Below are positions 1-64,000 of a DNA stretch of 64,000 nucleotides, piece by piece (position 1 is the stretch's first letter; every line of letters begins with the position of its first letter). The notes below the pieces were generated by a model, which saw only the letters and a program-made list of their open reading frames with translations, was not told the origin of the DNA and did no database searches. The position numbers and the translations under genes were made by a program. Origin of the DNA: a virus; IMG/VR virus record IMGVR_UViG_3300015371_000011, positions 1-64,000 of that record, one strand, 5' to 3'.

Positions 1-720
1 AACTAAATTACCTTCAAGCAGTGCCAGCTTGCGTGTCGCCAATATCAGCTCTTCGCGCATTCCATCCGTGTTTCTAACCAATTCCTTAAAATGAAACGCC
101 ATAAAAAGCATGACTGCGCCGATCTCACTGGTAAAAAATTCGGTAGACGAACAGTCTTGCGACTCCATGATCGCATAGGTTGGCAATGGCGTTGGTGGTG
201 CAAATGCGATTGCGGTACGGAAGGCCCTGCTTACGGCAATCAACTGAAATCGGGCCAGAGCCAAAGCTGCGGCTGTCTCAAAAACGAAGTGTCGTCTGCG
301 CGATTGTTTAAGCAATGGAGAAACGGAGAACTGGACGGCATAACGAGAACGCACGGTTTCTGGGGACAGCCTGAATGGAACTCTTGGAACAGCGCAAAGG
401 GCCGATGCTATAGACCAACCGATATATCGTACAAAGACTACGGTGCCAGAGGCGTCCGCATGTGCAGCCGATGGCGCAATAGTTTTCCTGCCTTTATCGA
501 AGATATGGGGCCAATGCCGCCCCGTCCACCACGATATACCCTCGACCGCAAAGACAATGACGGCCATTATAGCTGCGGCAAGTGCGAAGAATGCGAAACT
601 AATCAATGGCCGATGAATTGCCGCTGGGCCACCTATAAAGAGCAAGCCAATAATCGCAGGAAGCGAAGATACTGGCGCGGTAGACCTGTTAAAGTTAAAG
701 AAACTCATAGGTAATGTCAT
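1..720 (-). CDS. Putative antisense bridge ORF over the HNH gene (at least 240 codons, runs off the window)
   Basis: ATG 720-718 overlaps the TGA (717-719) of the upstream gene. No stop in this frame down to position 1 (read by hand). Confidence 0.45.
   Translation of the reverse strand, partial: MTLPMSFFNFNRSTAPVSSLPAIIGLLFIGGPAAIHRPLISFAFFALAAAIMAVIVFAVEGISWWTGRHWPHIFDKGRKTIAPSAAHADASGTVVFVRYIGWSIASALCAVPRVPFRLSPETVRSRYAVQFSVSPLLKQSRRRHFVFETAAALALARFQLIAVSRAFRTAIAFAPPTPLPTYAIMESQDCSSTEFFTSEIGAVMLFMAFHFKELVRNTDGMREELILATRKLALLEGNLV
91..714 (+). CDS. HNH homing endonuclease with N-terminal Zn-ribbon, antisense to the operon
   Basis: DLTGKKFGR..WWCKCDCG..SCGC, YGARGV, TLDRKDNDGHY..NCRWAT..EQANNRR. 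Confidence 0.88.
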   Translation: MKRHKKHDCADLTGKKFGRRTVLRLHDRIGWQWRWWCKCDCGTEGPAYGNQLKSGQSQSCGCLKNEVSSARLFKQWRNGELDGITRTHGFWGQPEWNSWNSAKGRCYRPTDISYKDYGARGVRMCSRWRNSFPAFIEDMGPMPPRPPRYTLDRKDNDGHYSCGKCEECETNQWPMNCRWATYKEQANNRRKRRYWRGRPVKVKETHR

Positions 721-1022
721 CTAACTGTCTGATCTCGCTCGTAAAGGAAGCGCGGCACGCACTCGAATGTGTCTATCGGCATCCGTTTCCAATCAATCGG
801 TTTATCTATCGGTTGAGTCTGCATATACAGCGTGAGCTTCAGCTGGCACGCAATAACGTCATGTTCCTTGCTCCGTTCGATATGCTCATAAATTGTCAAT
901 CCGCCTAACGCCAGCATCACAATCAGCAGCGCAATACCGAGGGCGTCCTTCCCTGCCATCGAAAGCGTGCCGAGCTTTGTAGCAAGGCTAACCGTGCTCT
1001 TGTCGCCATCGCCGTCCGCCAT
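717..1022 (-). CDS. Small membrane protein (one TM helix)
   Basis: ALGIALLIVMLALGGLTIY; ATG at 1022 overlaps the upstream TAA. Confidence 0.7.
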   Translation of the reverse strand: MADGDGDKSTVSLATKLGTLSMAGKDALGIALLIVMLALGGLTIYEHIERSKEHDVIACQLKLTLYMQTQPIDKPIDWKRMPIDTFECVPRFLYERDQTVR

Positions 1023-1234
1023 TATACATTCACCGTCGCCGCAAAATCTTTTAGCCACTTAGGCTCATGCTTGTCGTGCTTCGCCTTCTGCATCTTCTCG
1101 ATCATTGCCGGGTCGATATTGCGCACCTTGCACACGCACCGCCTGCACAATCCTGTCGCGTTCTCCTCGCCCAGCGCGTGCTTGCACAGGCGGCATTTCA
1201 ACCAGACAGTATGGTGGCAATGCGGACACTTCAT
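1022..1234 (-). CDS. Cys-rich zinc-finger protein
   Basis: MKCPHC..CRLC..CRRC; ATGA overlap at 1231-1234. Confidence 0.65.
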   Translation of the reverse strand: MKCPHCHHTVWLKCRLCKHALGEENATGLCRRCVCKVRNIDPAMIEKMQKAKHDKHEPKWLKDFAATVNV

Positions 1235-37727: not shown

Positions 37728-38374
37728 GCGAATTTTAGGACTTCTTGCGCCATGCGTTTGGCAGCTATCTCGCAATATTTCTCTTCTATCTCGATACCAA
37801 TAGCCTTGCGGCCCAAGTCCTTAGCGGCTCGCAATGTGGTTCCGCTGCCCATGAAGGGGTCAAGAATGGTTTCATCCTGCTGACAATAATTCGTCAAACA
37901 CCAATTCATCAATTTTAATGGCTTCTGCGTCGGATGGTCTCGTAGTGTCTCTTTGCCTAACAAACCATTCCATTCAATTGTTATTTTTTTTACAGACTTA
38001 CGATTGAATGAAGTCCAAGCTAATTCACAATCGCCAAAAGTTGGCATGGTGTTTAATTTATCCCAACTAATCCAATGGGTAGAGCGTGGCAACAAATCAG
38101 CAAAAAAATTACCGCCCCAAATAATAGCGTTTGATGCCATGTCTAAAATCATCAAAAAAATCTCTTGGCTAGGCCGTTCTGCGTCCCACGCATCAATGTA
38201 CTGGCGTCGCCTAATAGGCGTGCCAAAGCCGCCAAAGCCGTCAAAGCCGTGTGACATACTCACACCATACGGCGGATCAGTCAGCACTAAATCCACCGGC
38301 TCAAGCTGCAGCAGTATTTCTCTACAATCCCCATGAAATATCGTCACCGCATCGTCCTGGTAATAGGGTTTCAT
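37724..38374 (-). CDS. DNA methyltransferase (N6-mA, beta class)
   Basis: LTDPPY..HPTQKP..LDPFMGSGTT. Confidence 0.92.
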   Translation of the reverse strand: MKPYYQDDAVTIFHGDCREILLQLEPVDLVLTDPPYGVSMSHGFDGFGGFGTPIRRRQYIDAWDAERPSQEIFLMILDMASNAIIWGGNFFADLLPRSTHWISWDKLNTMPTFGDCELAWTSFNRKSVKKITIEWNGLLGKETLRDHPTQKPLKLMNWCLTNYCQQDETILDPFMGSGTTLRAAKDLGRKAIGIEIEEKYCEIAAKRMAQEVLKFA

Positions 38375-41355
38375 AGCAATAATATCTGCCCCGACTTGCG
38401 CCCGTAGAGCACGACTTCACGCGCAAACTTCTTCTTATCGCCGCCGTAATGCCACGGCGTGGGTATGCGCCACATCTGGTTTTCAATCACAGTGTCGTCG
38501 TACAGAAGCCCGCCCGTCTCGTCGTAGAATCCCGCCAAGTCATCGGCTGCCCTGAAAAATGTGGCCTCCTCTGGCCCCCAGTAAACCTCGCCGTACTCAG
38601 GCATGAGCGCCGCTATCGGCTCGCCACGCTCAAGCACGCCGTCAAGAATCTTATTGTACTCGGCCATCTCGTTGCGCCAGAAAGCGCCGTTGCTGTACAT
38701 AATCGCTTCGATGAATGTGCTCGGCATAATACCCTTGGTAAGCAAGTCCTGCAGGATAAAAATACCCAACTTTAGCCCGTGCAGCGCCATAAAAATCCAT
38801 GAAAAAATATTCATGCGCCGCCACTTGACTATGTCCATACTGCTCGTCTCGACAACCAAATCCTCATACTCGGCCAGATAACCATCGGCCCGTACCGTGC
38901 CGTGAATCTCGGCTAACTCTATACGCCGTGTGCGGATACCAAACTGCGCCTGATAGTCGGGCCGGCCCATCTCGGTATTAGGCAAGGCCATCAGCGGGTA
39001 GATAAACACCTGCCCACTCATGCCAGCCGCCACGATCTCGTCCAGCCCCTGCTTCCACGTCTCGTATGTCTCACCCGGCAGCCCGACAATAAATTCGCTA
39101 TATGTCGGCACGCCTTCGGCGTTGAAACGCTCCTGCAGCTTCTCGTAGGTAGACATTTTGATATTGCTGCGCTTGATATTCTGCAGCACCGTGGCGTTGT
39201 TGCTTTGGCGTGCGAGCGTGACGCTTTTAGACATGCCTGCGTCGGCTAGCATCTTGCCTACGGCGTAAACCTTGTCGTCGGTGTTCTTGCCGTAATTGAC
39301 GCGAAACCGCTGCGGATAGCCGTATTTCTCTTTGGTGGCTATCAGGTACTCGGCTATTTCACGGTCGCGTGCGAGCATGCCAAAATTCGACGCGCTCCCA
39401 AGTGCATACGGGATTTTATTACGCCCCAACCATTCAATCTCCGCAAATACTCGGTCTAGTCCATAGTAGCTCATCTTGTGTTGCCCAAGTCCATATTCGC
39501 AGAATGAACAATTTTCACAGAGCAACCCGTTAGCAAAAAAATTATGATTCGGCGTAGCTTCAACAATATCATAAACTCGCCGATGCTCGCTTGGCGAAAT
39601 CTCTTCTACTGCACACCAAGAAACCTTTGCAGTCGTTGCACCATCGCTTCGTTCAACTTGTCGTCGTTCCAAATCACAAAAATCTCCCAACCGAAATATT
39701 GATAATCTGCCGCTTCCATTTCCACGTCCTTTTCCTCTTGGTGCCAATAACGACCATGAGCGAGAATCGCTTTTCTTACTCCCTTTTTGCAGTGGATAAA
39801 ATCTGGATTGCGACAACCTCCCGATACTCCCGGCCCCAACCAAAATGTCCTGTCGCCAGTATATTTGAATGGCAGTTGATACTGTTGAAAAAATTTTATC
39901 AGCTTGCTCTCGAAACCATTCGGCGGCTCGCCAGCCTTTAAAAAATGAGCGGCATGCCATTGCGGATCGTTCCAATATTGCCGCATCTTTTGCTTCCACG
40001 ATTCGATCATTTGCTTGTGCTTGATTGGATCTAACCGTCGCATCGGATTGTTGTCGCCAGTTTGCCATGCGTAACCGAGCCTCTTGCTTGTTTCCACCCC
40101 TTTCCTCGCATGTGCTAGTCGTTGTTCTCGACTCATTCGCCGCATTGGACTGTTGTCGCCAGTGAATTTCAGGTAGTGCCCCATTGCTCGTTGCGTTGCT
40201 ACCACCTTCGCTACGTGTTCTGGCGATTTCTTTATTCCCTTGTTCATACCCGGATGTCTGTAGAGACCCGCTGCTGCTGCCCTCTTTATCCCCTCTATTC
40301 GCCGCTCTTCGCCTCCGCTTTGCTTCCGACTTGCTGCAGCTTTGATTCCCCGGAGTCTTTGCACTTCCAACGGAGTCGTTAATACTCTCTGTCTCAAGTG
40401 CGGCAGATAGCACCCCATCGAACAATACATCCTCTCTTTTGGCCGATGATCTATCGACGTTCCACAACCCTTGCAAAATCTTGTCGCCGACTTTAAGGTC
40501 GCCTGCTGTAACCCATCCCCTGTCGGTGTAAAAAGGATGATCTCTAGTTGCTCCAATTTCAGAACCTCCCGCTACTATCTTGATGGTTTCCTTAATGCCG
40601 CTACAAATCGAAAATGCGACTCTATTCCACGCAAGGCATTCGTCTTTCTCATTCCAACCTAAAATATAATCACCGGACTGCACTGCTTCTATATTTTTTT
40701 GCCCTGTTTGAGTAACTACCACCGTTCCTTCCGCGAGACACATAAATGGGCATCCGCGATCCTGCTCCAAGACGTAGCTATACTCTATTGGCTCTGGATG
40801 CTGCTCCAATAACCCGTCAAATAAGCCGGTCAACGCGGGCGACGGCAATTCATTCAACTCTTTCTGAAACGGATAATCCTGAGCGCAGTAGTGCACATCA
40901 TTGTCTCGATACGTTATCTGCGGGATACCTTCAAAGTCCGTGCTGTGAGTTTCCGCCCAACGCTTTAATACGGCAGTAAACGCCTGCTCACCCGCGCGTC
41001 TGACAGCTACGTCGATAAATGGATGCTTGGATAAATACTCAATGGCGTTATCGGGCACCTGCAATCCACCAAACACAATCAGGCACTCAGGCCAACGGCG
41101 TTTCACTTCGGCGGCTACTGCCAGGTTTAATTGCTCATTCCACACCGCCACAGAGAAAGCCGCCACGTCCACACGGTTGTCATAGTGCTTGAGAATATTG
41201 GCCGGCTTATCCACGCAGTAAAGAAAATCGCCAAACTCGTAATTGGCCTTGATGTCGTCATTCTGCTCGGCATAGGCGCGCAGCAATCCCGTAGCCAGCG
41301 GCAAGTAGCAGTTGCGGCCGAGCCTGATGTTATATTCGTTTAGGACTACGCGCAT
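38371..41355 (-). CDS. B12-binding radical SAM enzyme with an intein inside the CxxxCxxC motif
   Basis: RGCPFM|intein|CSFC; IVGLPGETYETW. Confidence 0.88.
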   Translation of the reverse strand: MRVVLNEYNIRLGRNCYLPLATGLLRAYAEQNDDIKANYEFGDFLYCVDKPANILKHYDNRVDVAAFSVAVWNEQLNLAVAAEVKRRWPECLIVFGGLQVPDNAIEYLSKHPFIDVAVRRAGEQAFTAVLKRWAETHSTDFEGIPQITYRDNDVHYCAQDYPFQKELNELPSPALTGLFDGLLEQHPEPIEYSYVLEQDRGCPFMCLAEGTVVVTQTGQKNIEAVQSGDYILGWNEKDECLAWNRVAFSICSGIKETIKIVAGGSEIGATRDHPFYTDRGWVTAGDLKVGDKILQGLWNVDRSSAKREDVLFDGVLSAALETESINDSVGSAKTPGNQSCSKSEAKRRRRAANRGDKEGSSSGSLQTSGYEQGNKEIARTRSEGGSNATSNGALPEIHWRQQSNAANESRTTTSTCEERGGNKQEARLRMANWRQQSDATVRSNQAQANDRIVEAKDAAILERSAMACRSFFKGWRAAEWFREQADKIFSTVSTAIQIYWRQDILVGAGSIGRLSQSRFYPLQKGSKKSDSRSWSLLAPRGKGRGNGSGRLSIFRLGDFCDLERRQVERSDGATTAKVSWCAVEEISPSEHRRVYDIVEATPNHNFFANGLLCENCSFCEYGLGQHKMSYYGLDRVFAEIEWLGRNKIPYALGSASNFGMLARDREIAEYLIATKEKYGYPQRFRVNYGKNTDDKVYAVGKMLADAGMSKSVTLARQSNNATVLQNIKRSNIKMSTYEKLQERFNAEGVPTYSEFIVGLPGETYETWKQGLDEIVAAGMSGQVFIYPLMALPNTEMGRPDYQAQFGIRTRRIELAEIHGTVRADGYLAEYEDLVVETSSMDIVKWRRMNIFSWIFMALHGLKLGIFILQDLLTKGIMPSTFIEAIMYSNGAFWRNEMAEYNKILDGVLERGEPIAALMPEYGEVYWGPEEATFFRAADDLAGFYDETGGLLYDDTVIENQMWRIPTPWHYGGDKKKFAREVVLYGRKSGQILLL
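39511..40740 (-). mobile_element. Intein (410 aa)
   Basis: CLAEGTVV..TRDHPFY..GW..LKVGD..VYDI..HNFFANGLLCEN|C. Confidence 0.88.
39606..40556 (-). CDS. Out-of-frame endonuclease nested in the intein (Zn-finger, NUMOD3-like repeats, Vsr/DUF559-like nuclease); true start uncertain
   Basis: CKGCG..YCSMGC; NKGIKKSPEH; TGDNSPMRR/TGDNNPMRR; PNGFE..FKYTG..NPDFI..HGRYWH..IWNDD. Confidence 0.8.
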   Translation of the reverse strand: MEQLEIILFTPTGDGLQQATLKSATRFCKGCGTSIDHRPKERMYCSMGCYLPHLRQRVLTTPLEVQRLRGIKAAASRKQSGGEERRIEGIKRAAAAGLYRHPGMNKGIKKSPEHVAKVVATQRAMGHYLKFTGDNSPMRRMSREQRLAHARKGVETSKRLGYAWQTGDNNPMRRLDPIKHKQMIESWKQKMRQYWNDPQWHAAHFLKAGEPPNGFESKLIKFFQQYQLPFKYTGDRTFWLGPGVSGGCRNPDFIHCKKGVRKAILAHGRYWHQEEKDVEMEAADYQYFGWEIFVIWNDDKLNEAMVQRLQRFLGVQ

Positions 41356-55037: not shown

Positions 55038-58000
55038 CTAGCGGGAATAGATGGTGGCGTTGTAGTGAAGGTTGACGAGGTTGACGCTGGTAACGGTATT
55101 GCCGAATTCGGTAAAATATATGGTCATCGGCGCATAGGTCGTCACTAGGGTCTTGGCAAGCGTATAGCTCTTTTTCTGTGCGTTTCCTACGGATATGGAA
55201 TCCATAAAAAGGCGGTTGGTGTAGTCCGTTAGATAATCTCCCCACAGTAGGCCAAATCCCGCTGGAGAGTTTATGACGCTCAGGCTATTGGCAATAAATA
55301 CAGGTTCCAGTGCGAGCTGTGGGCCACCGTTACGGGCAAAATCCATAGTGGCTTGCAGAAATACGGTTGCGCCTGATTTGTTAATTGTGATTGCCGCATA
55401 ACTGTGCGGGTATAATCCAGGCGATACAAACGATGGCTCTAATAGCTGCATTGAATCCGCATGCTCGTAAAACAGATAATCAACGGTCTGCCCTGTTGAT
55501 ACGAATGTACCGCTGAAACTGATCGTGACTTCCCAATCGCCCAAATAATTACGCACGCCGCGCGTGTTAAAGGGCACGACTTTGTACTGCATGTCGGCCT
55601 GTAGCGAGTCGATCATTACCGTTTCTTCGTAGTGCGTGCCTAAGATAGGCGCGACAAAGCTATAATCCGCCGACGCCTCAATAGTGCGTCGATACAGATC
55701 AAACCCATCAAAGAAGCCGCCGCGGTGTAGCAGCGTATAACGGTCGCCTGAGTTTGGTGGATACGGTGGAAAGCCCACAATGGCAGACTGAAATCCAGGC
55801 GCGTAAAAGGCTTGGTGATCCGAGCCTGTCCAATAATTAATGGTACGGACTGCGCCTTCATTGCCCTTTGCACCTGGCCCAGGGCCGGCCGAGCCGGTAT
55901 TCATGCGAAACATATCGCCGTTGAGCGAATAACGCACAGGGCAATGCGAACCGCTGAGCACTACGTAGGATGACGCCACGGTGCCGAGCTGCCCGCCTTC
56001 TTCTAGCGGTGCCGGCACGACGTCTACATTGAGCAGCGCCGCCACGGTGCCATCCGCCGCTATATTATAAGTAATGCCGCCCTTGACACTTAACGGCTGC
56101 GCTGGCGGTGCGTTCATATCCCAGAATGTAATCGTGCTCACCAGCGTCGGCGTGATCGGCACAGTGGGCACGTACTCCTGCACGACTAATGAATGCTTAG
56201 CCGTTTGCGGGTCGAAATTGATTCGCTTGACGAAACACGTTCTGAGGTCTTCTGACGTGATACCGATGGCCCAGCGGTCGCCGTTTTGCGGTTGAATATT
56301 GAATGGATTGCTAGGGCTAACGGTAATCGTGATAATGCTCGGCGCGCCCGCTGGAGGTGTCGTCGCCACGGTGCGTACTTCGGGCGAGTCGCTTTGGGTG
56401 TGCCATAAATAAAACTCATAAGTGTAGCCGCTATTAACCGTTACCTCGCGGTCGAGCACGACATTGAATAGATCGCCCTCAAGCACGCGCCCACCATAAC
56501 CCATCTCAAAGCCAGTAGTGACGATACCCACTTTGCACATATCGCCAGGCTCAACGGCTAGCGCCTCGATGCCCGTGGCGAATTGCATCTCGCGTACACT
56601 TTGACGGCGCCGTTGCAATTGATAATAGCCCTCGCGTACGGCCTCGGACTCGCGCGTGACGCCGATCAAACTTAAGTCCACATCCTTGATCGGCTCGTTG
56701 CGGCCATAGATGCTGGCCGAGTCCTGCACGAAAATCGTGTCCATGTTGAAATCGGCCATGCGGTTGGGGAATGACAGATTGACTTGATTCGGCGGTGTGG
56801 GATCGGTGGCGCCTATCGTCAATTGAAACGTGCCGGGTAGAATATTGCCCGCATGAAAAATCTGTCGCACGGGCAAGTCGCCGCGGTCGGTTATGATCTT
56901 AAATTTACCTTGACTATAAATAAGCGCTGATCGGTAAAGCCCCAGCATGTCGTTTACCCACTGGATATGCGGCTTCTTCTTGTCCATCACAATGTCTAAA
57001 CAGTGCTGCGGCTCCAAACCGCCTGCGCCGTTGGAGACTTGCGAATCGCATAGCGTGGCAAAATCAATAAAGGACTGAATATTTATGGCCGACGTCGGGA
57101 TAAACGGCCCCATGCCGTAGACCGAATTCGTCATGTAATCCAGAATGCCCCAGGCTGGATTTCTCGTCCATGTGGTCACATAGGTTGTCGTATTGTAGTA
57201 CGCGCGCACGTTACGCCCGCGCAGGACGGCGCTAATCGTAGGTGGTCCGCCCTGAAGTTGATTGGTTGCGATAGCCTTGACGGACAGAAGCGCCGTGCCT
57301 GAATACGTCTCCACCTGCGCATCTGACATTTCGGTAACATTGCGCAGCCAGATATGAGCAAAATCGGCATCGCCTTTGGCTAGGTCGCTGCGCTCATGCT
57401 GAGCTTCGCCTATCCACGTAAGACGAAAATCCCATGCGGCACGACTGGGAAGATTGTAAACTGGCGCATCCCATATCTCGCCCTTGTCCGCACCTGAAAA
57501 TGCACGGTCTTCAGCCGTCGTATAGGTGCCAGCCCCCTGCGGACTATACTCAACGCGATAATAGACAGTCTGCGTCTGCATGCGCGGATTAGTGCCACCA
57601 CGAAAAATCCCCAATCCTTGCAGCGCTGCCACCTGCAACTGCACTCGACTAACCTGATTGCCCTGTGTCGGATAGGTAATGGCCAGACTTGAAATCTCAC
57701 GGCCATCGGCAAATGTGTTGCGCGATAATTCAAAGCCAGGTATGGCCGATTGACTCGAAGCGCCTGTGCGCCAGTCCCATGAGATGTTGAGCGGGTCGTT
57801 CGTGCATAACTCGGAATGCCATATCGCTCCCTCATATTGCCCATATGAAAGATAATGGTCGTAGGCACCCGCAGGCGAAGAGCCGTACCACGGGTCAGCC
57901 GCTACGTCGGGACGGTCGATCCAATATCTATCGGCCGCTGCCTGGCAGATAGCGGACTGCGGTAGTGGATTATTGAAATTAGAAAAGGAGATCCCATTGA

Positions 58001-58538
58001 CCTTGATGCAGTCCACATTGGTAATGGTGCCGCAGCCCTCGCCTAATAGCATGCTTAAAACCTGCTGATTGGGATTGGCCGGGTTGACGTCAATGGCAAG
58101 GCTTAGCAGTTGTCCGCCTGAGGCATGCTCGCCGTACACTACAGGTATCGGCCCGCCCGGTGCATAACTCGTTTTTAATCCGTCCCAACTGTATGTCGTT
58201 GTCTCTTTCGGTGTTTCGAGTTTCGTCGGCTTGGGCCGCATGACCATGCTGACGATGGTGCTGATAAGAGAAATGACGAGCATAATGACTTGGATAACTG
58301 CCAACACAGGGCCGCGTGGCGCAATGTCTATCTCCACCGAGTCGGTCTGCCGTAAAGTCGTGGCTTGCCATTGATCAATTTTAATGCTGTTGACCTTTAC
58401 CTGTGCGACGCACGGCTTGATGCGCTTTAATTCTTCGCGCTGATCGAATAGATAGCCTAGCGTAATGTCGGCAGGCGGTGCTTGCGTGTGCGCAATGTGT
58501 ACCTTGCCGTCGATAATATCGCGCACTTCAATAATCAC
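55038..58538 (-). CDS. Tail tip/host-specificity protein (lambda J-like, with N-terminal gpI-like part)
   Basis: PIPVVYGE..YSGTALL..WTRNPAWGILDYMTN..YGMG..VEPGD. Confidence 0.9.
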   Translation of the reverse strand: MIIEVRDIIDGKVHIAHTQAPPADITLGYLFDQREELKRIKPCVAQVKVNSIKIDQWQATTLRQTDSVEIDIAPRGPVLAVIQVIMLVISLISTIVSMVMRPKPTKLETPKETTTYSWDGLKTSYAPGGPIPVVYGEHASGGQLLSLAIDVNPANPNQQVLSMLLGEGCGTITNVDCIKVNGISFSNFNNPLPQSAICQAAADRYWIDRPDVAADPWYGSSPAGAYDHYLSYGQYEGAIWHSELCTNDPLNISWDWRTGASSQSAIPGFELSRNTFADGREISSLAITYPTQGNQVSRVQLQVAALQGLGIFRGGTNPRMQTQTVYYRVEYSPQGAGTYTTAEDRAFSGADKGEIWDAPVYNLPSRAAWDFRLTWIGEAQHERSDLAKGDADFAHIWLRNVTEMSDAQVETYSGTALLSVKAIATNQLQGGPPTISAVLRGRNVRAYYNTTTYVTTWTRNPAWGILDYMTNSVYGMGPFIPTSAINIQSFIDFATLCDSQVSNGAGGLEPQHCLDIVMDKKKPHIQWVNDMLGLYRSALIYSQGKFKIITDRGDLPVRQIFHAGNILPGTFQLTIGATDPTPPNQVNLSFPNRMADFNMDTIFVQDSASIYGRNEPIKDVDLSLIGVTRESEAVREGYYQLQRRRQSVREMQFATGIEALAVEPGDMCKVGIVTTGFEMGYGGRVLEGDLFNVVLDREVTVNSGYTYEFYLWHTQSDSPEVRTVATTPPAGAPSIITITVSPSNPFNIQPQNGDRWAIGITSEDLRTCFVKRINFDPQTAKHSLVVQEYVPTVPITPTLVSTITFWDMNAPPAQPLSVKGGITYNIAADGTVAALLNVDVVPAPLEEGGQLGTVASSYVVLSGSHCPVRYSLNGDMFRMNTGSAGPGPGAKGNEGAVRTINYWTGSDHQAFYAPGFQSAIVGFPPYPPNSGDRYTLLHRGGFFDGFDLYRRTIEASADYSFVAPILGTHYEETVMIDSLQADMQYKVVPFNTRGVRNYLGDWEVTISFSGTFVSTGQTVDYLFYEHADSMQLLEPSFVSPGLYPHSYAAITINKSGATVFLQATMDFARNGGPQLALEPVFIANSLSVINSPAGFGLLWGDYLTDYTNRLFMDSISVGNAQKKSYTLAKTLVTTYAPMTIYFTEFGNTVTSVNLVNLHYNATIYSR

Positions 58539-58894
58539 AGTGGACGCCCCACGCCGACAATCCTGTGCTCGTATTTGATTAACGGCTCACAAACCACGCC
58601 GCCAAACATCGCACCGCAGTGAAGAAAGTCAGAACCGTTGTTACAAACGATGCCAATATGATTGATGATACCCGGCAGGATTTCGGCAAACATAACAACA
58701 TCGTAAGGCTCAAGTTTGGCTGGCGGCGGTTTGTAGATTTTCACATAGCGCGGCCACGCGATGGCCGATGGCGGCGACTCTGGCAGATCCATACCGCGTT
58801 CTTTGTTGAGCACATAGCGTACAAGTGAATAGCAGTCGAAAGATTGCGGCCCGATGGCTTTCTCTGCGTATGGCGTGCCGACGAGTTCAAGCAT
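58535..58894 (-). CDS. NlpC/P60 tail assembly protein (lambda K-like)
   Basis: GTPY..FDCYSLV..HIGIV..FLH. Confidence 0.88.
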   Translation of the reverse strand: MLELVGTPYAEKAIGPQSFDCYSLVRYVLNKERGMDLPESPPSAIAWPRYVKIYKPPPAKLEPYDVVMFAEILPGIINHIGIVCNNGSDFLHCGAMFGGVVCEPLIKYEHRIVGVGRPL

Positions 58895-59391
58895 TAGAAG
58901 ACAAAGAATTTTGAAGCATTGTACGGAATGGAAGGAAAGTCTTTTCTATTATAATTTCTGCGGGGTCCCTCGCTGTCATAATCAAAATTAAATCCTAGAT
59001 TGAACCTCGCCACTTCGTCAGTGAACACCACGTTTTTTACCTGCATCCTTATTAAGTCTTCCTGCCCCGATGTTGTGAGCGACGGATTCACGAGCCGTAT
59101 CGTCACGTCGTTAAGCGCTAAGTCATTGTCCTTGGCGAAGCGCAGCGCCATGCCTTGAAAGTTAGACACGTCCACCGTCATCTGCGGCAGCGAGCCGTCG
59201 CCGCTTTGCTCTGAGACGCCGACGAGAAAAGGCACTGCAGCGTAAATCTGGCCATTAAAAGTGAGTGTGTCGGGTAGGTTAGTAAACCGCGCAGTGGTGT
59301 TTGGGTTAATTGTTAAGTCTACACAATGGCACCAAGTTGTCTCTTCCATGGCGTTCTTCAATGCGATCAGGGAACTCGAAAATGACTTCAA
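58894..59391 (-). CDS. Minor tail protein (lambda L/DUF1833-like)
   Basis: RFTN..LTFNGQIYAAVPF..LPQMTVDVSN; TTG start, SD AAAGGA. Confidence 0.8.
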   Translation of the reverse strand: MKSFSSSLIALKNAMEETTWCHCVDLTINPNTTARFTNLPDTLTFNGQIYAAVPFLVGVSEQSGDGSLPQMTVDVSNFQGMALRFAKDNDLALNDVTIRLVNPSLTTSGQEDLIRMQVKNVVFTDEVARFNLGFNFDYDSEGPRRNYNRKDFPSIPYNASKFFVF

Positions 59392-59435
59392 TTGAATAAT
59401 CCTTTGACTAAATAATCGTTGTTATATAAATTCAC
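59388..59435 (-). CDS. 15-aa coupling mini-ORF
   Basis: GTG overlaps the TGA at 59432; its own TGA overlaps the TTG start at 59391. Confidence 0.4.
   Translation of the reverse strand: MNLYNNDYLVKGLFN
59404..59432 (+). promoter_or_regulatory. Sigma70-like promoter for the HNH gene, near-leaderless
   Basis: TTGACT-17-TAAATT; ATG 8 nt downstream. Confidence 0.55.
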
Positions 59436-60133
59436 CCCATATGCCATTTGCTAAAGGTCTTTACCGCACACCCATAGAAGAACGATTCAAACGTTTCTGG
59501 GATAAGATGGAAAAACCTGATGATGGCTGTTGGATTTGGCCTGGAAGCAAAGCTGCTGGCTACGGTACTATTTTTGTTGAATATAGAACTAAACATGCCA
59601 CGATGATGAAGGCACACAGATTGTCTTACATGATTCATGTCGGAGCGATTCCACCCGATAAAGAAATTTGCCACAGTTGCGATACCCCACCATGCATACG
59701 TCCTTCCCATCTTTTTCTTGGTACTCATCAAGACAATATTGCGGATGCCAAGCGGAAAGGTCGCATGGCTCATATCGGTCAAAATTCTCCACGTGGCGAG
59801 AATCATCCAACGAGCAAATTGACACAAAATGCCATCAAAGAAATTCGTGCTACTTATGCCGCTGGTGATACTAGCATGAGTACTCTCGGTCAACGATTTG
59901 GTGTTTCCGCTTCTCTTATTTATCACATTGTACGAAACCATCGTTGGAAAGATGTTATCGCTACCGATGCGAGAATGGTTAATCGCGCTAGAAGAACCTC
60001 CGTAGATATAATGAAAGAAATTCAAGAAAGATATTTGGCTGGCGAAACACCTACCCAATTGGGTAAGATTTATAACCTTACTCGTGGCCGTGTTTGGGGT
60101 ATTGGGCATGGCAGATTTAAAAGTTAGCTTCAT
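59432..60133 (-). CDS. Putative antisense bridge ORF (233 aa) over the HNH gene
   Basis: ATGA overlap with the upstream tail gene; codon-aligned with the HNH gene and stop-free. Confidence 0.45.
   Translation of the reverse strand: MKLTFKSAMPNTPNTATSKVINLTQLGRCFASQISFLNFFHYIYGGSSSAINHSRIGSDNIFPTMVSYNVINKRSGNTKSLTESTHASITSGISSTNFFDGILCQFARWMILATWRILTDMSHATFPLGIRNIVLMSTKKKMGRTYAWWGIATVANFFIGWNRSDMNHVRQSVCLHHRGMFSSIFNKNSTVASSFASRPNPTAIIRFFHLIPETFESFFYGCAVKTFSKWHMG
59441..60127 (+). CDS. HNH homing endonuclease with C-terminal HTH domains, antisense to the operon
   Basis: CWIWPG..GYG..AHRLSY..CHSCDTPPCIRPSHLFLGTHQDN..KLTQ; AT-rich. Confidence 0.92.
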   Translation: MPFAKGLYRTPIEERFKRFWDKMEKPDDGCWIWPGSKAAGYGTIFVEYRTKHATMMKAHRLSYMIHVGAIPPDKEICHSCDTPPCIRPSHLFLGTHQDNIADAKRKGRMAHIGQNSPRGENHPTSKLTQNAIKEIRATYAAGDTSMSTLGQRFGVSASLIYHIVRNHRWKDVIATDARMVNRARRTSVDIMKEIQERYLAGETPTQLGKIYNLTRGRVWGIGHGRFKS

Positions 60134-60693
60134 GGCACCAGCGCATTCTCCGTCAACGTGAATTGCGTCTTGTAAACATTACGCGCAATTTGCTCCATCT
60201 TCAGTCCATTCGGATCAAAATTGACAAGATAATTGCACGCCCACTTGGCATATATCTCCTGCCCCGATGACGGTGCCGTACCGAAATCCACCTGCCCCCA
60301 GGTGCGCAGCGTATAGTCGGTGGTAATGGATGTGACGCCCGTATCGGTTGTGAGCATGCGTGCCGAGAAAGAGCTGGCATTCAGGTTTCTATTCGGTAGG
60401 TAGTATGCCGTTGAGCGGCCATCGGCCACGCCAATCAGGCAGTAATTCTCTACCGCGCCAAACTCGCCGCCGTTCCAGTAAAATGGCGTTGCGCCTTGAT
60501 GATAGGCATGCAGCCCTTGCAACTCCTGCATGTGGCTGCGGCTAATGGCGTCGTAGGTAAGCGTGAATCTATACATCGGCCTGCGTGCGCGATTACTGAG
60601 TTGAAACGCCGTCACGTAGTCGGTAAGCACCGAGAATGTCATGGCTTCGCGCGTAAGCGCGTTTGGCGTGAATGAAAGCGTGAGCGGTATCAT
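60130..60693 (-). CDS. Distal tail protein-like (DUF2460-like), paralog 3
   Basis: RPMYRFTLTY..HQGATPFYWNGG..ADG..YYLPNRN..FGTAPSSG. Confidence 0.75.
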   Translation of the reverse strand: MIPLTLSFTPNALTREAMTFSVLTDYVTAFQLSNRARRPMYRFTLTYDAISRSHMQELQGLHAYHQGATPFYWNGGEFGAVENYCLIGVADGRSTAYYLPNRNLNASSFSARMLTTDTGVTSITTDYTLRTWGQVDFGTAPSSGQEIYAKWACNYLVNFDPNGLKMEQIARNVYKTQFTLTENALVP

Positions 60694-60914
60694 GGAGCGT
60701 CCACCCGCCAATCATAGCGGCCGCCGCCGCTGTCAATCTGTGTGCTGAATCGTATCGTCACGGCATTTGTTGACTTGCTGTACACCCATACCGTCGTATT
60801 CCAGCTAGGCGAAATGCCCGTCACGGCCACGCTGTTAGACGCCAGCGCGTGCGAGAATGAGCTGATGCTGGTGCCACTGCCGCAGCTTACCGTGCCGAAT
60901 ACCGTGGTTGTCAT
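60690..60914 (-). CDS. Small beta-rich tail-associated protein
   Basis: Resembles the C-terminus of 60911..62068 (WNTT.W..SK..F.T..GG..DW). Confidence 0.65.
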   Translation of the reverse strand: MTTTVFGTVSCGSGTSISSFSHALASNSVAVTGISPSWNTTVWVYSKSTNAVTIRFSTQIDSGGGRYDWRVDAP

Positions 60915-62068
60915 GACCCCACGATGCTCCAGTCAAAGTAACTGCCGCCGCTATTGGCAGGCGTGGCGAATGTCACCACGTTGAGCGATGCGCTGCGGCT
61001 ACTGATCCACCATGTCGTATTCCAATACGGGACGCCGGTTATAAATTGGCTTGTTGTCGTCATGTTAACCGTGGTCGTGCTGGCCGAGCCTGCCACCACG
61101 TTTGTACCAAAGGACGTTACGCCCGTGACTGCGGACGATGTAATAACGCGGCTTATCCCTGGCACTGCGCGTGTCCGTGCGGCTAGTGTCTTGTGCCATA
61201 GCGGTACGTGCTCGGTGATGCTCGGCGTCTCTTTGGCTTGCGCACGCAAGGCCATGCGCTGTATTGGCGCATGCGCGGTCAGTTGCAGTGCGGTGCGCAA
61301 TCCTACCGCCATGCTTACCCGCACTGTGGTAGCTGGCAAGGTTATAAATGGACTGACATTGGAGACTTCCGCAACATGCGCCCTTAGTGCCATGCGCTGA
61401 ATCGGTGCGTGCTCCGTCATGCGTGCCGAGATTTGCGCCCCTGCGTTCAAGGTAATTTGATACCAAGTCGGCCGGCCCACCGGGTCCACAATCGCGCCAG
61501 GATTCTCGATTAACTGTATTTGTGCGTTGTAAAGGCCAGGGCGAAATTGATCGAGCTTTAGCCCTTCTGGCGGAAAGAATACGCGATAGCGACAGCAGTA
61601 CGCCGCGCGTATGTGGTCGCCGCTGTAAGGCACGGTATCGAATGTCAGCACGCCGCTGGCCGAGGTGAGCGATGCAATGGCGTGCGTCCATGTAGAGTCG
61701 GTATATGAGCCGCCTGAGTAGCGGCGCGTCTTGACGGTATAGCTGGCCGCGTCGATCCAGCGGTTGGGCAAAAAATAGGTTTTGCGCACACCGTCTGCCT
61801 GCGCGATAAAGCATTCGTCTATGAGTCCATATTGCCCGCCATCCCAGTAAAAGGATCGTCCGCCTTGGACATACGCGAATAGCGCAGACAACGATTCGGC
61901 CTCGTGGCGGAGCAGAGGCCCAATGTCCATACTGAAGCGGTAGCTTGGCCGCGGTGAATAATTGAATGCGTGGAAAAACCCCGGCAGGCCCGCTACCGTC
62001 GTGCGCGTTACAGCTTCGCGTGTGACCGTGGGAGAAGGCGAAAAAGTTAAGGTGCGGGGTAGAGCCAT
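60911..62068 (-). CDS. DUF2460-like tail protein, paralog 2, with repeat-containing extension
   Basis: RPSYRF..QGGRSFYWDGGQYG..ADGVRKTYFLPNR; HAPIQRMALRA twice. Confidence 0.75.
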   Translation of the reverse strand: MALPRTLTFSPSPTVTREAVTRTTVAGLPGFFHAFNYSPRPSYRFSMDIGPLLRHEAESLSALFAYVQGGRSFYWDGGQYGLIDECFIAQADGVRKTYFLPNRWIDAASYTVKTRRYSGGSYTDSTWTHAIASLTSASGVLTFDTVPYSGDHIRAAYCCRYRVFFPPEGLKLDQFRPGLYNAQIQLIENPGAIVDPVGRPTWYQITLNAGAQISARMTEHAPIQRMALRAHVAEVSNVSPFITLPATTVRVSMAVGLRTALQLTAHAPIQRMALRAQAKETPSITEHVPLWHKTLAARTRAVPGISRVITSSAVTGVTSFGTNVVAGSASTTTVNMTTTSQFITGVPYWNTTWWISSRSASLNVVTFATPANSGGSYFDWSIVGS

Positions 62069-62224
62069 TCATTCGGGACTTTTTTGTGTCTGTATGCGCG
62101 TGACAATATTTTCCAATGCCGCTTTTTCTTCCTTTAGCTGCTCCACCTGTGCGGCCAGTGCCATGTTTTCCATCATCAATGCGCCGAGCATCTCGCGCAC
62201 GCGTTCGTCAATACTCTTAGCCAT
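62069..62224 (-). CDS. Small coiled-coil protein (51 aa)
   Basis: MAKSIDERVREMLGALMMEN..; fills the gap. Confidence 0.6.
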   Translation of the reverse strand: MAKSIDERVREMLGALMMENMALAAQVEQLKEEKAALENIVTRIQTQKSPE

Positions 62225-62227
62225 TTT

Positions 62228-63187
62228 TCAATTTGGCACGCGCAACGAACGAAACCCCGTTCCACCCGTATCGGCGCCACCGACAAAAACCTGCTGCGCC
62301 ACAACACCACCACCACCATTGTAAGCTACACGCATGGCTGTATAACCCGACGTCGGGTCAGCCGCATCGACTACGAACACATTGTTAGTCGCCGTCGCAT
62401 TGAAGCACTCAATAAGAGTACCGCTTGGATTGGTGTCCGTCTGACGGTAAATAAAAAGTGTTCGCCCCGTATCAGCCGGTTGTTTCAATTGCAGCACTCC
62501 GTCGCCGTCCAGCTTAAAAGCAGACTGCCCGCCGCTTGTAACAATATTGATATAGTTTCCCCACGGCCCTGTCAGTCTCAATCCATCGGCATTACCGCCC
62601 ACGCCGGCCAGGCGTATTGCATAATAGCCCATTGTAATATTATTAGGCGCGACAACACCTACCTGAACATCTATCTGATCCACTGCGGCGCTTAGTGAAT
62701 TGAATTGCGTGGTAACGCCTTCAAGGATACAGTAAAAATAACTGCTCGGTTGATACCCAGCCACGTTTATATCAAACGCGCTGGCGTCGCCCTTTAATCC
62801 TTGGCGCACGTAGATGTTTCCTGCCGTAACCTGCCCTTCGATGTTGGACGTCTCGTAATTGATTTTCTGCGCTGACAGAAAAAGTGTTGCATCCATTGCA
62901 TTGGGACCATTACTGCCTGAGCCTGTAGCGCGGTGCGTAATGCCTAGTGCCGCACGCGACTGCCAGCCGTGGCTGCCTGGGTCATCAACGCCGCTAAAAT
63001 ACACCCGTGTGACGGTATTGGATGTAGGCGAACCGACGGCATCCATGCTCAAAAGTGAGTCTGTGCGAGTATAGATACTGAGCGGCGATTTAACCGTGCC
63101 GCAGGCTGTAAGAGTTACGCCCAAATAATCATTAAGCACCTCGCCCCAGGTATTACCATCGCCAAAGACGGTCGGTAGTCTACTCAT
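62228..63187 (-). CDS. Tail fibre/receptor-binding-like protein
   Basis: RLPTVFGDGNTWGEVLNDYL; beta-rich; ends GGTGFRSLRVPN. Confidence 0.7.
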   Translation of the reverse strand: MSRLPTVFGDGNTWGEVLNDYLGVTLTACGTVKSPLSIYTRTDSLLSMDAVGSPTSNTVTRVYFSGVDDPGSHGWQSRAALGITHRATGSGSNGPNAMDATLFLSAQKINYETSNIEGQVTAGNIYVRQGLKGDASAFDINVAGYQPSSYFYCILEGVTTQFNSLSAAVDQIDVQVGVVAPNNITMGYYAIRLAGVGGNADGLRLTGPWGNYINIVTSGGQSAFKLDGDGVLQLKQPADTGRTLFIYRQTDTNPSGTLIECFNATATNNVFVVDAADPTSGYTAMRVAYNGGGGVVAQQVFVGGADTGGTGFRSLRVPN

Positions 63188-63966
63188 TTCGAATACAACC
63201 CATCACCAAAGAGTCCGCTGCTATAAGTATCACCGCCGCTAGCTGTAATCGTTGTTATCGTAGGCACCTCGCGCACCGTAGCCCTGAGTGCTATAGGCCA
63301 TAGCGGTCTGCGCTCCACGATACGCGGCCACGCCGCCACCTGGGCCGCCAACACCACCTGATAGAAAGTCGTGCGTGCCGCTTCGCTGGCAACTAGTGTC
63401 GGGTGCTCGGTTAAAACCAGCTGCGCGTTGTATAGCCCTGGCCCGAATTGCTCCAGCTGTATGCCGTTGGTCGGGAATTTGACGCGATACATGCAGCCGT
63501 ACTTGGCGCGCACGAAATCCCCACTGTAAGGCGCACTGCCGAACGTGACCACACCCGACGCGCCGCGCAGCGTGTAGGCGCCTGCCTGCCACGTCGATGC
63601 CGTCTGTGTGGTTGGTCTGTACGTCTGTACCGAGAATGAGCTTTGCCCGATATTGCGGTTGGGTAAAAAGTAATCGCGCCTCACGCCATCGGCCAGCGCC
63701 ACAAAGTCGTAGTCCGTCATGCTGCCGAACTGCGCGCCGTCCCATAGAAATGTCTTGCCGCCCTGATGATAGGCGTGCTGCGCCGATAGGTTCTCCGCTT
63801 CGCCGCGCGTGAGCGGCCCCATATCCAAGGTGAATTGATAGAGCGGCCGATTGGTCGGATTGAATAAGTGCTGAAAGCCCTGCTGCCCCGCGCCCTCGGT
63901 AGCGCTGATATTCTCGCGCACCACCGTAGGCGCTGGGCTGAAACTGATTGTGCGGGAAACGGACAT
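63184..63966 (-). CDS. DUF2460-like tail protein, paralog 1
   Basis: RPLYQF..HQGGKTFLWDG..ADGVRRDYFLPNRN..FGSAPYSGD. Confidence 0.75.
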   Translation of the reverse strand: MSVSRTISFSPAPTVVRENISATEGAGQQGFQHLFNPTNRPLYQFTLDMGPLTRGEAENLSAQHAYHQGGKTFLWDGAQFGSMTDYDFVALADGVRRDYFLPNRNIGQSSFSVQTYRPTTQTASTWQAGAYTLRGASGVVTFGSAPYSGDFVRAKYGCMYRVKFPTNGIQLEQFGPGLYNAQLVLTEHPTLVASEAARTTFYQVVLAAQVAAWPRIVERRPLWPIALRATVREVPTITTITASGGDTYSSGLFGDGLYSK

Positions 63967-64000
63967 TCATGTTTACCTGTTGCGCTTAAGCACGTTGACC

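Follow-up and report, generated by a model that had tools for sequence, protein, structure and literature searches.

A backward HNH endonuclease gene in a phage tail operon keeps its antisense frame free of stop codons and may let ribosomes pass across the insert

The stretch of DNA analysed here (the window) comprises bases 1 to 64,000 of the 81,479-bp IMG/VR virus record IMGVR_UViG_3300015371_000011, a soil phage whose DNA is present in rhizosphere metagenomes. In its tail operon, a free-standing HNH homing endonuclease gene, here called HNH2, lies backwards between a gpM-like tail-tip gene and a gpL-like baseplate hub gene, and the strand opposite to HNH2 is open over the whole gene, forming a 233-codon open reading frame (ORF) that runs in the direction of the operon and that we refer to as the bridge ORF. 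The open frame goes along with a complete lack of three codons in HNH2, and fully open frames recur in backward HNH genes of other phages more often than in forward ones. We consider it likely that the open mirror frame bridges the tail-operon mRNA and that ribosomes are relayed on it across the insert.

HNH2 lies backwards at the junction of two tail genes

HNH2 was assigned by its matches to Pfam HNH_3 (35.6 bits, cut-off 24.8) and phrog_59 (E = 3e-29), and the invariant H/C/D/N columns of the alignment are present in its product, which identifies an HNH nuclease domain. The GC content of the gene is 43% versus 53% for the genome. A protein search of the GenBank phage collection returned only relatives of less than 60% identity, and an identical protein is carried by three other contigs; queries of the same collection with the junction region and with the gpM-like gene, as DNA and as protein, gave no match. 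Both neighbours of HNH2 are read in the opposite direction, namely the gpM-like gene upstream in the operon (Pfam DUF2460, E = 4.8e-6, under the gathering score) and the hub gene downstream (Pfam Phage_phiJL001_Gp84_N, 32.8 bits with a cut-off of 26; phrog_396). Contigs of three rhizosphere metagenome runs span both junctions of the insert at 100% identity, and the arrangement is therefore not an assembly artefact. Among the reads of four DNA runs, which gave short contigs, no joint bypassing HNH2 was seen.

The bridge ORF shares its triplets with HNH2 (60131 − 59441 = 690 = 3 × 230), so that a stop can arise in it only opposite a TTA, CTA or TCA codon of the endonuclease gene. None of these occurs among the 10 leucine and 12 serine codons of the 228 codons of HNH2, a count that bears out the remark of an earlier note on this DNA, which had been made from the letters alone. 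That note had also described an unbroken relay of three successive 4-nt stop/start overlaps along the operon strand, and each of them is present in the sequence: the TGA of the gpM-like gene overlaps the ATG of the bridge ORF, the TGA of the bridge ORF overlaps the GTG of a 15-codon ORF, and the TGA of this short ORF overlaps the TTG of the hub gene (Table 1). Relative to the gpM-like gene the bridge ORF changes frame at the ATGA, and its stop lies 41 nt ahead of the hub start, so that it is fused to neither neighbour.

No match to the bridge ORF was found in Pfam or PHROG, and none in Rfam at E values up to 0.1 for positions 59200-60400, which held no intron-like RNA. Tolerance of the insert by means of an intein or a group I intron was rejected on the basis of the Pfam, PHROG and Rfam searches, which revealed neither a splicing domain in the bridge ORF nor an intron RNA fold. 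HNH2 is preceded by a promoter-like site, the single sigma-70-like match found near the gene; the number of such matches is not above the expectation from shuffled sequence. Its -10 element ends 8 nt before the ATG with no Shine-Dalgarno sequence in between (59404-59443), and the HNH2 mRNA may be leaderless or near-leaderless. The hub gene is preceded by a Shine-Dalgarno-like AAGGA, which would allow independent initiation besides coupling.

An insert-free relative retains the ancestral junction

In L001, a related contig of IMG/VR, the gpM-like protein shares 95% identity with that of the window and the flanking proteins are ~95% identical as well, while both the HNH gene and the 742-nt insert are absent. 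In this contig the two tail genes are joined by an ATGA, the hub gene beginning at that ATG (...GGTGCCATGAAAACG...), which implies that the hub gene originally began at the ATG that now opens the bridge ORF and that this codon was left upstream of the insert. The present start of the hub gene, TTGAAG, is the counterpart of the ancestral ATGAAA, and a 5-nt direct repeat, TGAAG, flanks the insert. Judged by this comparison, two of the three overlaps are inherited parts of a duplicated ancestral ATGA junction rather than new ones. The hub gene and its L001 allele are of equal length; nucleotides 1-33 are 39% identical and later parts 64-87%, a 5' divergence of the kind that would be expected beside a homing site. 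With this 33-nt divergence as indirect evidence, HNH2 is predicted to act as a homing endonuclease that cleaves the insert-free allele at a specific site.

The open antisense frame exceeds what composition predicts

TTA, CTA and TCA together make up 3.3% of the codons in this genome, and none of its 77 ordinary genes of at least 100 aa does without all three. Given the HNH2 protein sequence and the synonymous usage of the phage, the probability that the aligned antisense frame is open was 0.0039; based on the gene's own third-position composition it was 0.0006, with 5.2 antisense stops expected and 0 seen. Codons ending in A are used normally in the other codon families of HNH2 (14 of 73 four-fold codons). 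The stop-free antisense frame of HNH2 is not due to chance.

An explanation by composition and chance would hold that the aligned antisense frame is the easiest to keep open and that 22 leucine and serine codons simply happen to lack the three triplets in question. Several observations speak in its favour: leucine and serine content is low, in genes at large the aligned frame is open more often than any other, as 8 of 120 forward HNH genes in the survey described below are open too, and the pattern was picked out in the earlier note after it had been seen. On the other side stand the two probabilities given above, to which a second backward HNH gene of this genome (copy 1, HNH1) adds one of 0.0087 under its own composition, and the lack of a single open frame among the ordinary genes. 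Furthermore, composition cannot explain a depletion that depends on orientation, is specific to certain codons and is found in two HNH families, and we regard this explanation as very improbable.

Open mirror frames depend on gene orientation in other phages

The earlier note had proposed a survey of antisense HNH homologs for open frames. HNH_3-family loci with 3-kb flanks were collected from IMG/VR and from metagenome contigs, the HNH ORF was located by profile, and orientation was called from the nearest ORFs of at least 70 aa within 400 nt. A gene was counted as backward when the neighbours on either side were read from the other strand, and as forward when both shared its strand. After removal of duplicates the HNH_3 set held 188 genes, all but two of which were less than 70% identical to each other; the total over both HNH families was 268.

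The aligned antisense frame of HNH_3 genes was fully open in 13 of 32 backward and 8 of 89 forward genes (P = 1.7e-4). The HNH1-type family replicated this result with 4/16 open backward genes versus 0/31 forward ones (P = 0.010), and for both families combined the counts were 17/48 versus 8/120 (P = 1e-5), whereas nulls calibrated on forward genes predicted 3.1-3.8 open genes among the backward ones. The survey thus gave open fractions of 35-41% for backward and 7-9% for forward homologs, so that a lack of open antisense frames in homologs, which the earlier note had named as a refutation, was not borne out. Within the HNH_3 survey the difference was significant in all three strata of HNH gene GC content: below 0.45 (backward 3/10, forward 0/27, P = 0.015), from 0.45 to 0.56 (7/17 and 3/44, P = 0.003) and above 0.56 (9/19 and 6/35, P = 0.02).

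In the same HNH_3 survey, the ratio of observed to expected antisense stops was 0.48 in backward and 0.82 in forward genes. TTA and CTA accounted for a share of 0.142 of the leucine codons in backward genes versus 0.262 in forward genes, and TCA for 0.089 versus 0.157 of the serine codons; GC content, the amounts of leucine and serine, the use of other codons ending in A and the two remaining antisense frames showed no difference between backward and forward genes. Because only the TTA+CTA and TCA shares differ, the depletion is synonymous and codon-specific. Orientation changes 36 times on the HNH tree, and the cases are therefore independent events. Based on these data, we find it rather probable that mirror-frame ("ambigrammatic") coding is widespread among the backward homing endonuclease genes of tailed phages and has evolved there repeatedly as an adaptation, by which TTA, CTA and TCA would be purged synonymously and a translated spacer ORF would carry ribosomes to the next gene.

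Bridge ORFs tend to stop at the start of the next gene

At the 17 open backward loci, the bridge stop fell within -8 to +10 nt of the start of the next gene in 10 cases; with the same criterion the two other frames gave 4/17 and 0/17. The bridge start often lies on the stop of the upstream gene, as in L063, L199, L075, L213 and L134. In L091 (2824-3464), the bridge opens with a diverged copy of the first seven codons of the next gene, and in L040 (2671-3701) its final part is an in-frame copy of the last ~20 codons of the previous gene and its stop lies 3 nt before the next ATG. With such copies at the junction, ribosomes would reach a copy of the ancestral junction, which fits a translational hand-over. 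As an observation in its own right, the backward HNH cassettes in L040 and L091 are flanked by diverged duplications of host-coding sequence in frame with the bridge, amounting to ~70 nt of the 3' end of the upstream gene in L040 and ~20 nt of the 5' end of the downstream gene in L091.

These junctions also bear on the idea of a filter at insertion, similar to the ShiLan case discussed below, in which cassettes land in coding sequence close to the ends of genes, only those that bring an open in-frame mirror survive, since the host protein is read through them, and the present bridge is a functionless remnant. Such a filter would agree with the position of the insert directly after the ancestral start codon, with the in-frame copies of neighbouring gene ends in the bridges of L091 and L040 and with a published case on the same strand (PMC11855218). 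It does not agree with a bridge that, as in the window, is shifted in frame at the ATGA and ends before the hub gene without being joined to either neighbour, nor with the clustering of bridge stops at the downstream start. Moreover, a functionless frame would soon gain stops at the 22 susceptible codons, whereas the depletion persists among HNH genes nearly all of which are less than 70% identical, so that the maintenance of the frame is left without explanation. We therefore think a filter of this kind unlikely.

Ribosome relay across the insert as a proposed mechanism

Selection against stop codons is meaningful only if the frame is translated. Re-initiation of ribosomes is the most economical reading. 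In our view, an HNH gene with a promoter-like site was inserted backwards exactly at the ATGA overlap of the gpM-like and gpL-like genes, the old start codon staying on the upstream side of the insert and a second copy of the junction (TTGAAG) on its downstream side. Synonymous codon choice keeps the HNH gene without TTA, CTA and TCA, giving rise to the 233-codon mirror ORF that begins at the old start codon. In the mechanism that we propose, ribosomes that end the gpM-like gene would re-initiate at the retained ATG, translate a meaningless polypeptide over the 0.7-kb insert and terminate shortly before the hub gene, with the hand-over taking place via the 15-codon ORF, the AAGGA of the hub gene or both. 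The operon mRNA would stay covered by ribosomes, leaving no long untranslated stretch on which Rho could act or with which the endonuclease mRNA could pair, and translation of the bridge would deliver ribosomes to the downstream tail genes. The avoidance of antisense stops probably serves this continued reading of the tail-operon messenger across the insert. The benefit could be relief from Rho polarity, translational coupling or protection of the RNA; a comparison of intergenic gap sizes, which did not differ between open and non-open backward genes, did not separate coupling from the other benefits.

Alternatively, the bridge ORF could be conserved for a functional protein of its own, for instance a modulator of the endonuclease or of the tail. 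Its full length, its good ATG and its place in an operon that is translated are what one would expect of such a gene, but it matches no Pfam or PHROG family, and its sequence is dictated by the codons of HNH2. In addition, one and the same protein cannot be encoded by bridges that lie over two unrelated HNH families and over HNH genes of which nearly all share less than 70% identity, and for the reverse ORF of narnaviruses an analysis of polymorphisms is reported to speak against a functional product (PMC8155312). A coding function thus has very little probability in our view.

A further possibility is that the frame is translated but that the benefit falls to the endonuclease gene or arises at the RNA level, through less sense-antisense pairing and RNase III cleavage or through tuning of expression. 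The promoter-like site of HNH2 faces the operon, so that complementary transcripts are expected, and the hub gene has a Shine-Dalgarno-like site of its own, both of which would suit this explanation. It accounts neither for bridge stops that coincide with the start of the next gene nor for the ancestral junction context kept at both ends, and we consider it quite unlikely that the benefit lies there in place of the passage of ribosomes to the tail genes.

Several points weigh against a relay of ribosomes. Translation of the bridge, the relay itself, termination-dependent re-initiation and the benefit are what we infer from the sequence patterns. Rho-dependent polarity in the host is an assumption, and the hub gene, with its own Shine-Dalgarno-like site, may not need coupling. 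The 15-codon GTGA-to-TTGA leg is not significant: a relay to the hub start arose in 10% of shuffled spacers with strict overlap and in 17% when small gaps were allowed. The relay of the earlier note therefore stands as far as the presence of its three overlaps is concerned, but two of them are inherited from the duplicated junction and the short leg is at chance level. Elsewhere, ~60-65% of backward HNH genes are not fully open, which means that the device is dispensable, and the third endonuclease gene of this genome, a backward LAGLIDADG gene, has 5 antisense stops in the aligned frame and is not bridged. The general strategy of neutralising an insertion by overprinting, which the earlier note had suggested for endonuclease genes, would accordingly apply to two HNH families, copy 1 included, without extending to the LAGLIDADG gene or to most backward HNH genes. 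With respect to the survey, a test on phylogenetically independent pairs had only 3 supported pairs and was underpowered, orientation was called by a crude longest-ORF rule (neighbour ORFs of 275-948 aa), and few neighbour genes were confirmed by family, the PHROG annotation of the neighbour ORFs being mostly blank.

If ribosome relay on mirror frames holds true, it would constitute a third way, beside introns and inteins, by which a selfish gene could reside in an essential operon without harming it, and selection would act on the opposite strand of a gene purely for the movement of ribosomes. Backward HNH genes would offer natural test cases for polarity and translational coupling in phage operons and would suggest a design rule for backward cargo in engineered operons. 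There is also a consequence for annotation, as gene callers may choose the meaningless bridge ORF over the endonuclease gene or list both as overlapping.

Relation to known systems

According to a review of the homing endonuclease genes of bacteriophage T4, such genes have to keep their impact on the genes around them small, and all but one of those in T4, segD, are sense-oriented (PMC2988022). HNH2 resembles the free-standing seg and mob genes of the T4 type in its intergenic position, its presence or absence between close relatives and the divergence of the target beside the insert, and with its promoter-like site it may resemble them in expression as well. It differs from them in that the review describes no stop-free mirror frame or bridging ORF for these genes (PMC2988022).

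In the ShiLan type, an HNH gene lies hidden and out of frame within a methylase gene of actinophages (Arsenault, Gosselin and Gogarten 2025, PMC11855218). As in our case, the host frame runs stop-free through the HNH insert and intein or intron features are missing (PMC11855218). There, however, the endonuclease ORF shares the strand of the gene that contains it and is translated as part of the host protein, whereas HNH2 occupies the junction of two genes, on the strand opposite to theirs, and is accompanied by a separate ORF; the words antisense, reverse and opposite do not occur in the text of that paper. Membership of HNH2 in the ShiLan type was rejected on its strand, on its location and on the fact that the host frame is not read through the insert.

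Ambigrammatic narnaviruses likewise have a codon-aligned reverse frame that is open over a whole gene, and it is the translation of the reverse ORF and not its product that is reported to matter (PMC6884476 / 10.1101/761890; PMC8316113). HNH2 shares with them a whole-gene, stop-free and codon-aligned reverse frame, with a depletion of TTA, CTA and TCA beyond composition, and its reverse frame may be translated too. The narnaviruses are RNA viruses of eukaryotes whose reverse ORF lies over their own polymerase gene, whereas here the frame belongs to a DNA phage operon and crosses a foreign, backward mobile gene. The bypass element of T4 gene 60 with mobA (10.1101/2022.08.31.505936) is another mobile cassette linked to an endonuclease, and it compensates during translation for interrupting a host gene; there, ribosomes hop over 50 nt, while here they would translate through about 700 nt. 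In the literature, we found no account of backward phage endonuclease genes whose mirror frame is free of stops. The codon trick and transparent HNH inserts are thus known, and the antisense case of a phage endonuclease gene is the one for which we found no published description.

Other endonuclease genes and genomic setting

HNH1, the first of the three endonuclease genes, is backward as well, belongs to a different family (phrog_374) and is also without TTA, CTA and TCA. Its geometry is the same as that of HNH2, with an ATGA followed by one codon and then by the reverse complement of the HNH stop. When the record is read as a circle after removal of the 123-nt terminal repeat, the bridge of copy 1 is 261 codons long and its end lies 14 nt within the next gene. 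No relative of the gene upstream of copy 1 was found, which left this copy without an empty-site comparison. Beyond the HNH1 start, the bridge continues for 52 codons (window 1-90, genome 81291-81356) with a charged, helix-like stretch, and the following gene begins with TTG behind an AAGGAG and encodes a lipoprotein-like N-terminus. A small host gene, now fused to the bridge, may have left these extra codons as a remnant.

The LAGLIDADG gene (LAGLIDADG_3 and helix-turn-helix domains, phrog_4645; L003:5628-6479) sits between two minus-strand genes, and its antisense stops are still below the 13.3 expected from composition. Most of it is covered by two long, overlapping minus-strand ORFs of 150 and 146 aa. 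The earlier note had further counted a dual-frame intein among its examples. The intein itself was recovered by Pfam (Intein_splicing and PT-HINT, aa 213-614) in a B12-binding radical-SAM protein (38371-41355, minus strand), while the alternative-frame ORF of 316 aa over the intein DNA (39606-40556, minus strand) matched no Pfam or PHROG family, so that a nuclease in the second frame is unconfirmed.

Table 1. Positions of the features discussed, in window coordinates unless marked otherwise.
Feature	Position	Strand	Remarks
HNH2	59441..60127	+	free-standing HNH homing endonuclease gene, 228 aa
Bridge ORF	59432..60133	-	233 codons, no stops, codon-aligned antisense of HNH2
gpM-like tail-tip gene (DUF2460)	60130..60711	-	upstream of the junction; stop TGA 60132-60130
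gpL-like baseplate hub / minor tail gene	58894..59391	-	165 aa; TTG start 59391-59389
ATGA stop/start overlap	60133-60130	-	TGA of the gpM-like gene (CCA-TGA end) overlapped by ATG 60133-60131
GTGA overlap	59435-59432	-	bridge stop TGA 59434-59432 overlapped by GTG 59435-59433
TTGA overlap	59391-59388	-	15-codon ORF stop TGA 59390-59388 overlapped by hub TTG
15-codon ORF (GTG...TGA)	59388..59435	-	connects bridge stop to hub start
TGAAG, left direct-repeat copy	60128..60132	-	5-nt repeat flanking the 742-nt insert
TGAAG, right direct-repeat copy	59386..59390	-	TGA is the stop of the 15-codon ORF; within TTGAAG
Shine-Dalgarno-like AAGGA	59400..59404	-	8 nt ahead of hub TTG
Promoter-like site for HNH2, TTGACT-17-TAAATT	59404..59432	+	one sigma-70-like match, 9/12
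NlpC/P60 gpK-like gene	58535..58894	-	lambda-like tail-tip set
J-like fibre gene	55038..58538	-	lambda-like tail-tip set
HNH1 (copy 1)	91..714	+	phrog_374
Copy 1 bridge ORF	1..720	-	ATG 720 overlaps TGA of gene 717..1058
LAGLIDADG gene	genome 69628..70479	opposite to neighbours	third endonuclease gene, outside the window

The record has a GC content of 52.7% and a 123-bp terminal repeat, and all its substantial ORFs lie on the minus strand except for the three endonuclease genes. The tail-tip genes of phages of the lambda type (M-L-K-I-J) are translationally coupled. In the window, a similar order is found (M-like, L-like, K-like with NlpC/P60, and J-like) with 4-nt overlaps, and the insert-free relative has the M/L ATGA; unlike in the lambda type, the coupling is broken here by the 742-nt backward insert. 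In the GC-rich tail region, a pair of long ORFs of 385 and 335 aa lies on the same strand in differing frames at 60911-62072 (minus strand), and a second such pair, of 260 and 243 aa, at 63184-63970 (minus strand). The 385-aa product is weakly similar to the DUF2460-like phrog_2913.

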